A stretch of DNA of 64,000 nucleotides from the NCBI RefSeq assembly GCF_003334355.1, contig NZ_QOWP01000003.1. One strand, 5' to 3'. This DNA comes from Escherichia coli. Its GTDB lineage: Bacteria; Pseudomonadota; Gammaproteobacteria; Enterobacterales; Enterobacteriaceae. Below are positions 41,986 to 46,007 of this stretch, in pieces (position 1 is the stretch's first letter; each line of letters begins with the position of its first letter). The translations under genes were made by a program, and so were the position numbers. The notes beneath the pieces are model-generated. The model was not told where the DNA came from, searched no databases, and worked only from the letters and a program-made list of their open reading frames with translations.

Positions 41986-42293
41986 AACAATTTCCCTTCA
42001 TTGAATGAATGGAGATTTACCCAAAAACATTTCGGGCGGGATCGAGTATACACAACTAAAGCATGCGAATTACGGCGCGGGGAATTAGCGATGGCGTTTT
42101 AGGATAATTGGAATGAATATCAAATATAAGTTTCAACTTATATTTAAATAACAATAAAAATCATAAACTTAAAATAAAAACAAAAGCAATTAATCTGCGT
42201 ATTTTCCGAAATAAACAACGATTAAAAATCTATTTTAGGATTAACCTCATGGTATGATTTCCGTTAAATCACAGACAAGGGGATTTATCTGAT

Positions 42294-42326
42294 AAAAAAA
42301 TGCCGACATAACGTCGGCATTGTTAT
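42294..42326. terminator. Bidirectional hairpin terminator (A7-tgccgacataacgtcggca-ttgtt) in the pgi/yjbE intergenic region
   Basis: Hairpin flanked by A-run and T-rich sequence. Confidence 0.6.
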
Positions 42327-42393
42327 TAAGGTTATTTAATCAATCGTGCTATGTATTAATTGCCGAATACGATGTACATATCGGCATCGACCT

Positions 42394-42470
42394 GTAGGCC
42401 TGATAAGACGCGACCGCGTCGCATCAGGCATCGGTTGCCGGATGCGGCGTGAACGCCTTATCCGGCCTAC
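42394..42470. repeat. REP/BIME elements downstream of pgi
   Basis: gtaggcctgataagacgcg...gcgtcgcatcaggc and gccggatgcggcgtgaacgccttatccggcctac. Confidence 0.8.
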
Positions 42471-44133: not shown

Positions 44134-44369
44134 TAGCAATACTCTTCTGATTTTGAGAATTGTGACTTTGGAAGATTGTAGCGCCAGTCACAGAAAAATG
44201 TGATGGTTTTAGTGCCGTTAGCGTAATGTTGAGTGTAAACCCTTAGCGCAGTGAAGCATTTATTAGCTGAACTACTGACCGCCAGGAGTGGATGAAAAAT
44301 CCGCATGACCCCATCGTTGACAACCGCCCCGCTCACCCTTTATTTATAAATGTACTACCTGCGCTAGCG

Positions 44370-44657
44370 CAGGCCAGAAGAGGCGCGTTGCCCAAGTAAC
44401 GGTGTTGGAGGAGCCAGTCCTGTGATAACACCTGAGGGGGTGCATCGCCGAGGTGATTGAACGGCTGGCCACGTTCATCATCGGCTACAGGGGCTGAATC
44501 CCCTGGGTTGTCACCAGAAGCGTTCGCAGTCGGGCGTTTCGCAAGTGGTGGAGCACTTCTGGGTGAAAATAGTAGCGAAGTATCGCTCTGCGCCCACCCG
44601 TCTTCCGCTCTTCCCTTGTGCCAAGGCTGAAAATGGATCCCCTGACACGAGGTAGTT
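44370..44657 (+). promoter_or_regulatory. lysC 5' leader containing the lysine riboswitch (L-box)
   Basis: Long structured leader directly upstream of lysC; recognised by position and conserved segments (gaggcgcg..., ...ggtgcatcgccgaggtg...). Confidence 0.75.
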
Positions 44658-46007
44658 ATGTCTGAAATTGTTGTCTCCAAATTTGGCGGTACCAGCGTAG
44701 CTGATTTTGACGCCATGAACCGCAGCGCTGATATTGTGCTTTCTGATGCCAACGTGCGTTTAGTTGTCCTCTCGGCTTCTGCTGGTATCACTAATCTGCT
44801 GGTCGCTTTAGCTGAAGGACTGGAACCTGGCGAGCGATTCGAAAAACTCGACGCTATCCGCAACATCCAGTTTGCCATTCTGGAACGTCTGCGTTACCCG
44901 AACGTTATCCGTGAAGAGATTGAACGTCTGCTGGAGAACATTACTGTTCTGGCAGAAGCGGCGGCGCTGGCAACGTCTCCGGCGCTGACAGATGAGCTGG
45001 TCAGCCACGGCGAGCTGATGTCGACCCTGCTGTTTGTTGAGATCCTGCGCGAACGCGATGTTCAGGCACAGTGGTTTGATGTACGTAAAGTGATGCGTAC
45101 CAACGACCGATTTGGTCGTGCAGAGCCAGATATAGCCGCGCTGGCGGAACTGGCCGCGCTGCAGCTGCTCCCACGTCTCAATGAAGGCTTAGTGATCACC
45201 CAGGGATTTATCGGTAGCGAAAATAAAGGTCGTACAACGACGCTTGGCCGTGGAGGCAGCGATTATACGGCAGCCTTGCTGGCGGAGGCTTTACACGCAT
45301 CTCGTGTTGATATCTGGACCGACGTCCCGGGCATCTACACCACCGATCCACGCGTAGTTTCCGCAGCAAAACGCATTGATGAAATCGCGTTTGCCGAAGC
45401 GGCAGAGATGGCAACTTTTGGTGCAAAAGTACTGCATCCGGCAACGTTGCTACCCGCAGTACGCAGCGATATCCCGGTCTTTGTCGGCTCCAGCAAAGAC
45501 CCACGCGCAGGTGGTACGCTGGTGTGCAATAAAACTGAAAATCCGCCGCTGTTCCGCGCTCTGGCGCTTCGTCGCAATCAGACTCTGCTCACTTTGCACA
45601 GCCTGAATATGCTGCATTCTCGCGGTTTCCTCGCGGAAGTTTTCGGCATCCTCGCGCGGCATAATATTTCGGTAGACTTAATCACCACGTCAGAAGTGAG
45701 CGTGGCATTAACCCTTGATACCACCGGTTCAACCTCCACTGGCGATACGTTGCTGACGCAATCTCTGCTGATGGAGCTTTCCGCACTGTGTCGGGTGGAG
45801 GTGGAAGAAGGTCTGGCGCTGGTCGCGTTGATTGGCAATGACCTGTCAAAAGCCTGCGGCGTTGGCAAAGAGGTATTCGGCGTACTGGAACCGTTCAACA
45901 TTCGCATGATTTGTTATGGCGCATCCAGCCATAACCTGTGCTTCCTGGTGCCCGGCGAAGATGCCGAGCAGGTGGTGCAAAAACTGCATAGTAATTTGTT
46001 TGAGTAA
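44658..46007 (+). CDS. lysC: Lysine-sensitive aspartokinase III
   Basis: ORF track 449 aa MSEIVVSKFGGTSVADFDAMNRSADIVLSDANVRLVVLSASAGITNLLVALAEG... Confidence 0.98.
   Translation: MSEIVVSKFGGTSVADFDAMNRSADIVLSDANVRLVVLSASAGITNLLVALAEGLEPGERFEKLDAIRNIQFAILERLRYPNVIREEIERLLENITVLAEAAALATSPALTDELVSHGELMSTLLFVEILRERDVQAQWFDVRKVMRTNDRFGRAEPDIAALAELAALQLLPRLNEGLVITQGFIGSENKGRTTTLGRGGSDYTAALLAEALHASRVDIWTDVPGIYTTDPRVVSAAKRIDEIAFAEAAEMATFGAKVLHPATLLPAVRSDIPVFVGSSKDPRAGGTLVCNKTENPPLFRALALRRNQTLLTLHSLNMLHSRGFLAEVFGILARHNISVDLITTSEVSVALTLDTTGSTSTGDTLLTQSLLMELSALCRVEVEEGLALVALIGNDLSKACGVGKEVFGVLEPFNIRMICYGASSHNLCFLVPGEDAEQVVQKLHSNLFE

Follow-up and report, generated by a model that had tools for sequence, protein, structure and literature searches.

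The lysC leader of Escherichia coli: a full-length lysine riboswitch with a terminator-less expression platform that fits translational, RNase E and Rho control

The window, that is, the whole 64,000-nucleotide stretch of DNA that was analysed, is part of the Escherichia coli chromosome and contains on its + strand an open reading frame of 449 amino acids (44658-46007), the product of which matched the NCBIfam model NF006570, 'lysine-sensitive aspartokinase 3', with 767.9 bits. Upstream of the leader of this gene, lysC, lies pgi in divergent orientation. The initial annotation had described a long leader of about 300 nt before lysC, delimited as 44370-44657, and had recognised it as the lysine riboswitch of that gene. 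The length was borne out, the leader measuring 306 nt on the + strand, and the bounds coincide with the first base matched by Rfam and the base preceding the ATG; the transcript, however, starts 18 nt further upstream, at 44352. From 5' to 3', the leader comprises a hairpin region of 18 nt, the aptamer and an expression platform of 91 nt. The features of the promoter and the 5' end, together with the controlled gene, are as follows.

44290-44322, + strand: conserved block up to and including the -35 element (alignment of relatives)
44317-44322, + strand: lysC promoter -35 element, TTGACA (spacing to the transcription start; kept in relatives)
44340-44347, + strand: -10 region, TTATTTAT, exact hexamer uncertain (17-18 nt after the -35 element and 5-6 nt before the transcription start)
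44352, + strand: transcription start site, +1 G (numbering of PMC10946432)
44358-44373, + strand: 5'-terminal hairpin CCUGCG-CUAG-CGCAGG, +7 to +22 (predicted folds)
44658-46007, + strand: lysC, lysine-sensitive aspartokinase III (open reading frame; NF006570 match)

The start site was placed by the numbering of Ghosh et al. 2024 RNA (PMC10946432), in which the leader is counted from the transcription start and G309 is the G of the AUG. This placement is corroborated by the published Rho stops G349, U354-357 and A364, since these fall on matching bases of the window (g, tttt and a at 44700, 44705-08 and 44715, respectively). The promoter was positioned by this published start together with conservation; a simple sigma-70 consensus scan did not flag the lysC promoter, its -10 region being missed because an A at position 2 or a T at position 6 is absent. 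Within the -10 region, TTTATTTATAAAT was found to be conserved across most of the aligned relatives. The block at 44290-44322 is nearly invariant between E. coli, Kluyvera, four Citrobacter species, Superficieibacter and Enterobacter sp. ENT03, including those leaders that have no aptamer (described below), and is a candidate binding site for a promoter-level regulator, perhaps ArgP. The 5'-terminal hairpin is a perfect 16-bp palindrome at the DNA level and was predicted in all folds but the one in which P1 was forbidden; in Kluyvera its stem is kept and its loop is different.

A covariance-model scan with the Rfam Lysine family (RF00168), the check proposed in the initial annotation, was positive, with an untruncated match to 44370-44566 on the + strand (99.5 bits, the gathering score being 30 bits; E 3.1e-25) that spans model positions 1-182 of 182. 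The 3' end of this match lies 91 nt upstream of lysC on the same strand, that is, in the 5' leader, and the identical 197 nt carry the label 'riboswitch' in the RefSeq annotation of E. coli genomes. The designation of all of 44370-44657 as riboswitch hence stands for 44370-44566 as the ligand-sensing aptamer, with the remainder, 44567-44657, forming the expression platform, on which the initial annotation had been silent. A 561-nt query round the leader was found in every one of 5426 complete E. coli genomes at an identity of 95% or more and in 5421 of these at 99% or above, the leader sequence being 100% identical in several complete genomes. The aptamer is composed of the following elements.

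44370-44566, + strand: lysine riboswitch aptamer (RF00168)
44375-80 with 44556-61, + strand: P1 (covariance-model alignment)
44385-93 with 44440-48, + strand: P2 (covariance-model alignment)
44400-07 with 44426-33, + strand: P2b (covariance-model alignment)
44413-44418, + strand: L2 strand of the kissing loop, GCCAGU (6-bp complementarity to L3)
44452-63 with 44472-82, + strand: P3 (covariance-model alignment)
44464-44469, + strand: L3 strand of the kissing loop, GCUGGC (6-bp complementarity to L2)
44483-93 with 44500-09, + strand: P4 (covariance-model alignment)
44511-17 with 44545-51, + strand: P5 (covariance-model alignment)
44517-44540, + strand: distal P5 extension, a 10-bp hairpin (18-nt insertion relative to the Rfam consensus in the covariance-model alignment)

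All six helix segments of the family are present in the window, with 47 of the 51 modelled pairs being canonical. In an alignment of 25 Enterobacterales lysC leaders, extending from the aptamer start to the AUG, the Rfam structure was paired in 90% of cells, as opposed to 42-47% when it was slid along the alignment, and compensatory changes were found at 22 pairs (105 cells), values reached in none of 500 shuffles. This covariation is carried by P2, P2b and P3, whereas P1 and P5 are invariant across the 25 leaders, so that covariation is uninformative for these two helices; such invariance is to be expected, because their strands must also fit the alternative structure described below. The core junction motifs AGAGGNGC, CGCCGA, UGUCAC and GGUGGAG are invariant or nearly so in the same alignment and agree with the Rfam consensus. 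The P2 internal loop agrees with it also, and the K-turn and loop-E motifs are covered by this agreement implicitly only.

The L2-L3 tertiary pairing is unscored by the covariance model. Among relatives, 19 distinct L2-L3 duplexes with coordinated changes were found, the duplex covarying between genera from CCAG/CUGG to CCGUA/UACGG and UCCGUUU/AAACGGG. It is this cross-genus covariation that supports the kissing loop, and not a per-sequence shuffle test, which is weak for such short loops. The distal extension of P5 is likewise an element of the relatives' leaders: each of its 10 pairs shows a compensatory change somewhere in the 25 leaders, and 78.6% of its cells are paired, in comparison with 34-50% when slid. 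Crystal structures of the Thermotoga maritima asd lysine riboswitch, reportedly those of Serganov and of Garst, both from 2008, are said to show P1-P5 arranged round a five-way junction with an L2-L3 kissing loop; both the junction and the kissing loop are encountered in the window. The P5 extension of the window, conserved and covarying in the Enterobacterales, is an insertion with respect to the Rfam consensus.

Minimum-energy folding of the whole leader did not recover the aptamer, and its z-score was only -1.87. The whole-leader folds contain long-range pairs that are implausible during transcription. Failure of folding to find the aptamer is to be anticipated where a ligand and tertiary contacts contribute to the stability of an RNA, and the folds are treated here as weak evidence; the whole-leader fold was used solely to spot a recurring local stem in the platform.

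The leader is a full member of RF00168 in which every testable defining feature of the family was found. Its identification as the lysine riboswitch of lysC, advanced in the initial annotation, is upheld by the full-length model match, the RefSeq label, the covariation of its helices and of L2-L3, and the literature (PMC10946432; PMC5499598). It is, moreover, the E. coli K-12 lysC riboswitch itself, an element already known: no difference from the K-12 element was detected, and the published G309, G349, U354-357, A364, the RNase E Site1 at 250-253 and the rut site at about position 240 all land on fitting bases or features of the window (PMC10946432; PMC5499598, Bastet et al. 2017 NAR). As experimental papers on this same leader exist (PMC10946432; PMC5499598), its earlier description as expected and well characterised was apt. 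Direct binding of L-lysine by the lysC leader has been reported (PMC10946432).

It might still be asked if the leader is a decayed and non-functional relic, of the kind seen upstream of an aspartokinase paralog, given that remnants and complete deletions are known in relatives. We regard this as extremely improbable, in view of the score of the aptamer, 99.5 bits for a match to the complete model, the invariance of all its core junction motifs, the identity of at least 99% in 5421 of 5426 E. coli genomes, and a lysine response that has been demonstrated experimentally (PMC10946432).

Between the aptamer and the start codon, the expression platform and the sites mapped within and beyond it are arranged as follows.

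44567-44657, + strand: expression platform (91 nt between aptamer and ATG)
44541-44565, + strand: anti-sequester (anti-P1) stem, 5' strand, which includes the P5 and P1 3' strands (unconstrained and P1-forbidden folds)
44570-44590, + strand: small hairpin within the loop closed by the anti-sequester stem (predicted in all folds)
44587-44627, + strand: C-rich, G-poor tract, the rut region, +236 to +276 (base composition)
44595-44619, + strand: anti-sequester stem, 3' strand (folds; pairing in relatives)
44601-44604, + strand: RNase E cleavage Site1, UCUU, +250 to +253 (positions of PMC10946432, mapped via the transcription start)
44614-44620, + strand: Shine-Dalgarno (SD)-sequester helix, 5' strand, CCUUGUG (pairs with 44646-52)
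44646-44652, + strand: SD-sequester helix, 3' strand, CACGAGG, which holds the SD sequence GAGG at 44649-52 (folds; conservation)
44660, + strand: G309 pause and Rho/NusG termination point, the G of AUG (PMC10946432, mapped)
44700, 44705-08 and 44715, + strand: further Rho stops (PMC10946432, mapped)

In a terminator scan, 44567-44657 proved free of intrinsic terminators on the + strand; the only terminator-like sites in the scanned region were at 44103-17 (+ strand, outside the leader) and 44587-74 (- strand). An alternative to be considered is transcription attenuation as known from Bacillus subtilis lysC, where an intrinsic terminator hairpin is able to form once lysine has bound. The aptamer class is indeed identical, and the B. 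subtilis lysC L box shares with the window the aptamer family, the five-helix junction and the class of gene controlled. A Bacillus-type mechanism is nonetheless excluded in practical terms, and we give it next to no credence, because no terminator-like combination of stem and U-tract occurs on the + strand in the interval from aptamer to ATG; in addition, the platform ends in a helix that pairs with the SD sequence. Whereas the L box acts via an intrinsic terminator (PMC10946432), the window has none and shows SD sequestration, RNase E and Rho elements instead.

The platform contains two helices, which are conserved and mutually exclusive. The first is the anti-sequester stem, formed between 44541-65 and 44595-619, with a predicted energy of about -24.5 kcal/mol as an isolated duplex. 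Its pairing was kept in 93.3% of cells in the 25 leaders, as against 47-72% when slid, a margin that is inflated by the derivation of the helix from the window sequence, and only four double changes, each in a single cell, were found; support for the stem thus comes in the main from conservation, its covariation being weak. An anti-P1 stem that hides RNase E sites is named in the published model (PMC10946432). The small hairpin that it encloses (44570-44590) is variable and poorly alignable among relatives.

The second helix is that between CCUUGUG and CACGAGG, in which the SD sequence is paired. CCCTGACACGAGGT was found to be conserved across the Enterobacterales, well beyond what an SD sequence requires, and the 7-bp helix was 96% paired in the 25 leaders, without covariation. 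A second alignment added six aptamer-less leaders and twelve leaders of an aspartokinase paralog to the 25 riboswitch leaders, with 39 distinct leaders being scored; in these, the helix was 93.8% paired. The pair 44618-44648 is G-C in 24 leaders, A-U in 12 and G-U in 2, and Kluyvera carries an uncompensated A-C mismatch at this pair. As A-U is confined to the paralog clade, the change probably represents a single evolutionary event.

A local hairpin, CCUUG/CAAGG (44614-18 with 44622-26), was considered as another partner of the sequester strand and was rejected: it was 88% paired in the riboswitch leaders and 78% in the wider alignment, showed no compensatory change and was broken at 44618 in 13 leaders. 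Transient formation of this hairpin is possible. The SD-sequester helix is preferred because the local hairpin became the weaker of the two once the aptamer-less and paralog leaders had been added.

The anti-sequester stem shares bases both with P5 and P1 (44545-51 and 44556-61) and with the sequester strand (44614-19). As its 3' strand, 44595-619, takes in RNase E Site1 and runs into the CCUUGUG of the SD-sequester helix, the structures are mutually exclusive. We infer the base-pair registers given above for both platform helices.

The C-rich tract at 44587-44627 is the only stretch of the leader in which C exceeds G in such a bubble, with a peak of 50% C and 17% G at +246 to +256. It coincides with the published rut region and with RNase E Site1; the rut (Rho loading) site has been located at about position 240 (PMC10946432). 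Site1 is defined by the DeltaSite1 construct, in which positions 250-253 are deleted, and is credited in PMC10946432 to Caron et al. 2012 PNAS. One of its bases, U44603, is invariant in the 25 leaders. Work on the same leader has described SD sequestration, RNase E cleavage and lysine-enhanced Rho/NusG termination at G309, with a ChIP Rho termination score of 6.1 for the lysC leader (PMC10946432; PMC5499598). The dependence on lysine, cleavage by RNase E, termination by Rho and the transcription start are taken from the literature, their positions having been mapped onto the window, and the sequence elements described here agree with the published model, in which the leader acts at three levels, namely translation, mRNA decay by RNase E and termination by Rho.

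These elements can be combined into the following scheme. At low lysine, P1 would be open and the 3' strands of P5 and P1 (44541-65) would pair with 44595-619; the resulting anti-sequester stem would leave the SD sequence (44649-52) free and keep the C-rich tract and the RNase E and Rho sites double-stranded, such that lysC would be transcribed and translated and its mRNA would be stable. When lysine is bound, P1 (44375-80 with 44556-61) would close and free 44595-619, whereupon CCUUGUG (44614-20) would pair with CACGAGG (44646-52) and block ribosome binding. The C-rich strand thereby exposed would be cut by RNase E at Site1 (44601-04), and would load Rho, with NusG, leading to termination at the start codon (44660) and inside the open reading frame.

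A rival scheme would be that of a purely translational riboswitch, in which lysine only hides the SD sequence and the drop in mRNA reflects passive decay, or Rho termination of an mRNA that is no longer translated. The SD-sequester helix is the best-supported element of the platform in our analysis, and part of the Rho effect has been attributed to lost translation and is thus indirect (PMC10946432), both of which would suit this scheme. The C-rich tract and RNase E Site1, however, sit within the very strand that the anti-sequester stem buries, and the in vitro and DeltaSite1 results argue otherwise. A purely translational mode of action is accordingly given only a slight chance of being the correct one. 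The 306-nt lysC 5' leader at 44352-44657 is instead almost certainly composed of a lysine aptamer and a 91-nt terminator-less platform, with an anti-sequester/SD-sequester switch and control by RNase E and Rho.

Such an arrangement resembles that of the E. coli thiC, thiM and ribB riboswitches, which, like lysC, have a translational platform with a C-rich rut whose accessibility is set by the state of the switch, and in which transcription pauses or terminates at the start codon (PMC5499598; PMC5234074). These three differ from lysC in their ligands and aptamers, and in lysC the switch also has the direct effect of laying open RNase E sites, which is termed 'nucleolytic repression' (PMC10946432). 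As a textbook regulatory RNA that is annotated in every E. coli genome and has been dissected experimentally, the leader matters little in itself; the useful product is a coordinate map, for annotators, of the transcription start, helices, switching strands, RNase E site, rut tract and Rho stops.

The distribution of the aptamer was assessed by scanning species-representative genomes with a DNA pattern back-translated from the LysC N-terminus, which retrieved at least 120 gammaproteobacterial loci, 59 of which were subjected to Rfam scans. A hand-made regular expression for the aptamer core had proved too strict, missing E. albertii and most Vibrio, and was replaced by the Rfam scans and a benchmarked nhmmer profile. 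Among the 59 loci scanned, a Lysine riboswitch was found upstream of lysC in 25 Enterobacterales leaders (24 complete and one truncated), and also in Vibrio, Pseudoalteromonas, Rheinheimera, Shewanella, Alishewanella and Haemophilus. The presence of the riboswitch in these genera beyond the Enterobacterales indicates that it is ancestral for gammaproteobacterial lysC.

There were several instances of lysC leaders in which the aptamer was not detected. The leaders of four Citrobacter species, Superficieibacter electus and Enterobacter sp. ENT03 gave no Lysine match at the gathering threshold, and that of C. werkmanii gave none even at E <= 1. All six are without a block of about 228 nt (window positions ~44374-44601), with identical end points, and keep the promoter and the SD hairpin; they measure 79-89 nt, and the SD-sequester helix dominates the predicted fold in five of the six. 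No Lysine match was obtained in the lysC upstream regions of Yersinia artesiana, Photorhabdus, Xenorhabdus, Providencia, a few Vibrio and Succinivibrio. Matches to V_AS5 in Yersinia and Enterobacter loci were considered as an alternative leader RNA and dismissed, most likely being ERIC repeat insertions; the aligned sequence contains what we take to be the ERIC PCR primer sequences.

In one comparative paper, the system is described as well conserved in the Enterobacterales and losses are unmentioned, and no paper combining 'lysine riboswitch' with 'Citrobacter' was found among the literature searched. Given this view of good conservation, the aptamer deletions and absences, together with the remnant upstream of the paralog, could interest those who study riboswitch evolution.

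The paralog in question is a second aspartokinase, 62% identical to LysC, the gene for which adjoins those of a diaminobutyrate transaminase and decarboxylase (diaminobutyrate/diaminopropane). Its leader is homologous to that of lysC and keeps P3-, P4- and P5-like hairpins as well as the SD hairpin, but is without P1, the AGAGG core and the anti-sequester region; no covariance-model match to it was obtained even at E <= 10. Judged from its sequence, this leader appears to be the remnant of a decayed riboswitch.

The SD-proximal hairpin module (44614-44652) is almost unchanged in the aptamer-less lysC leaders of Citrobacter, Superficieibacter and Enterobacter sp. ENT03, and the remnant leader of the paralog retains it as well, a base pair having changed there in a compensatory manner. 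It is conceivable, though in our estimation rather unlikely, that this module is an autonomous regulatory element with a function of its own, to which the aptamer is a modular add-on that the Enterobacterales have repeatedly discarded. Were this so, the hairpin might, for example, damp translation constitutively or serve as the target of another factor, and this would apply to the E. coli leader as well. In E. coli itself, a natural disruption of the aptamer was observed in one blood isolate, in which IS1 is inserted in the 3' strand of P1.

Comparison of the lysC leaders revealed that a block of approximately 228 nt, the counterpart of window 44374-44601, was cleanly absent from those of four Citrobacter species, Superficieibacter electus and Enterobacter sp. 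ENT03, with identical deletion end points in 6/6 leaders. The missing block holds the whole lysine aptamer, together with the 5' strand of the anti-sequester stem and the first C-rich segment, and alignment demonstrated that the promoter and the SD-sequester hairpin were retained in all of these leaders (n=6). The Lysine covariance model returned no match at the gathering threshold in any of the six, nor in a scan of the L007 leader at E<=1. The leaders, with L-numbers denoting loci around lysC-type genes in the genomes of relatives, were as follows.

Aptamer-less lysC leaders identified by alignment
L007:3710-4057, + strand, aptamer-less leader
L016:7254-7600, + strand, aptamer-less leader
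L052:2313-2759, + strand, aptamer-less leader
L110, L012 and L075, further aptamer-less leaders, in the oriented coordinates of the leader alignment

A block ending in ...GGATGAAAAATCCGCATGACCCCATCGTTGACA (window 44290-44322), directly upstream of and including the -35 element, was found to be nearly invariant across all aligned relatives, including those with aptamer-less leaders, and is a candidate for a site at which lysine would control the promoter, possibly through ArgP, reportedly a promoter-level regulator of lysC. Downstream of this block, CCTGCGCTAGCGCAGG forms a perfect 16-bp palindrome at window 44358-44373 (+7 to +22 of the leader), outside the coordinates of the initial annotation, and is predicted to fold as a 5'-terminal hairpin. 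The stem of this hairpin was kept in Kluyvera with a different loop, and a diverged form was present in the aptamer-less leaders.

A second, paralogous aspartokinase shares 62% identity with LysC, has the N-terminus MTRIYP..VVAKFGG and was encoded divergently from diaminobutyrate transaminase and decarboxylase genes at the loci listed here.

Loci encoding the second aspartokinase
L008, L010, L015, L025, L046, L070, L076, L079, L082, L100 and L109
L074, gene at 4114-5475

The leader of this paralog is a decayed remnant of the lysC leader. It retained hairpins resembling P3, P4 and P5, as well as the SD hairpin, in which a compensatory G-C to A-U change had occurred, and was devoid of P1, the AGAGG core and the anti-sequester. 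A covariance model match at E<=10 was obtained in none of the five paralog leaders scanned (L008, L015, L025, L070 and L109).

In Pantoea sp. Nvir, a stink-bug symbiont, the nhmmer profile of the aptamer sequence aligned with the lysC leader from end to end (69 bits), yet the Rfam covariance model gave no match even at E<=10; this leader may represent a riboswitch in structural decay in a symbiont genome.

L121 (Pantoea sp. Nvir), approximately 140-335 nt 5' of the K codon of lysC, nhmmer profile match

In E. coli EECO1006 (NZ_CP090319.1), a human blood isolate, an IS1 element with a target-site duplication was situated within the 3' strand of P1, inserted at the equivalent of window ~44554-44562, such that the aptamer was separated by about 0.77 kb from the expression platform and lysC.

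The lysine aptamer was present in most other Gammaproteobacteria of the locus set. Using Rfam where scanned, or a benchmarked nhmmer profile, it was not found upstream of lysC in Yersinia artesiana (L049), Photorhabdus (L006, L021, L062, L065, L069 and L104), Xenorhabdus (L081), Providencia (L114), L115, Vibrio (L027, L033 and L087) or Succinivibrio (L050). Lineage-specific insertions in the riboswitch were also evident in the alignments, one of 25 Enterobacterales leaders and one extended with aptamer-less and paralog leaders, in which the P5 loop was longer by about 65 nt in Klebsiella sp. and by about 25 nt in Cedecea. In many genera, the two SD-sequester strands were additionally separated by a hairpin of variable form that appears to covary; E. 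coli has no such hairpin.

Examples of riboswitches with P5-loop insertions in the two alignments
L014:9129-9390, Klebsiella
L043:5747-5968, Cedecea

Within the E. coli genome collection, the lysC leader region also occurred as a copy on one plasmid, and in NZ_CP020025.1 only 91% of the 561-nt query was present, split over two places. Elsewhere, about 612 nt lying in the espL4 region of NZ_CP148116.1 were absent from the window at 56543/56544.

L052, L110 and L012 carried insertions of ~100 nt ahead of the lysC promoter. Sub-threshold Rfam matches to V_AS5 ('Vibrio RNA AS5') were obtained at two loci.

L049:3085-3209, - strand, V_AS5 match
L015:6139-6261, - strand, V_AS5 match

Rfam V_AS5 appears to correspond to ERIC repeats, because sequences that we take to be those of the ERIC PCR primers were recognised inside these matches; the pgi-lysC intergenic region of several relatives contains ERIC-like insertions.

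Three tandem, identical naRNA4/REP units of ~78 nt, spaced at 98 nt, occupied window 58763-59036 (- strand) between aceK (56947-58683) and aceA (59062-60381), an array apparently one 98-nt repeat period longer in the window than in NZ_CP148116.1. Single naRNA4/REP matches and an sRNA match were located as follows.

28498-28568, - strand, naRNA4/REP match, malM-lamB intergenic region
32726-32796, - strand, naRNA4/REP match, malE-malF intergenic region
42397-42467, - strand, naRNA4/REP match, pgi-yjbE intergenic region
42182-42331, + strand, STnc430 sRNA match (Rfam, 79 bits), in the gap separating yjbE from the pgi 3' end

STnc430 also adjoined pgi in loci of Citrobacter, Enterobacter, Kluyvera, Pseudocitrobacter and Superficieibacter (56-138 bits).
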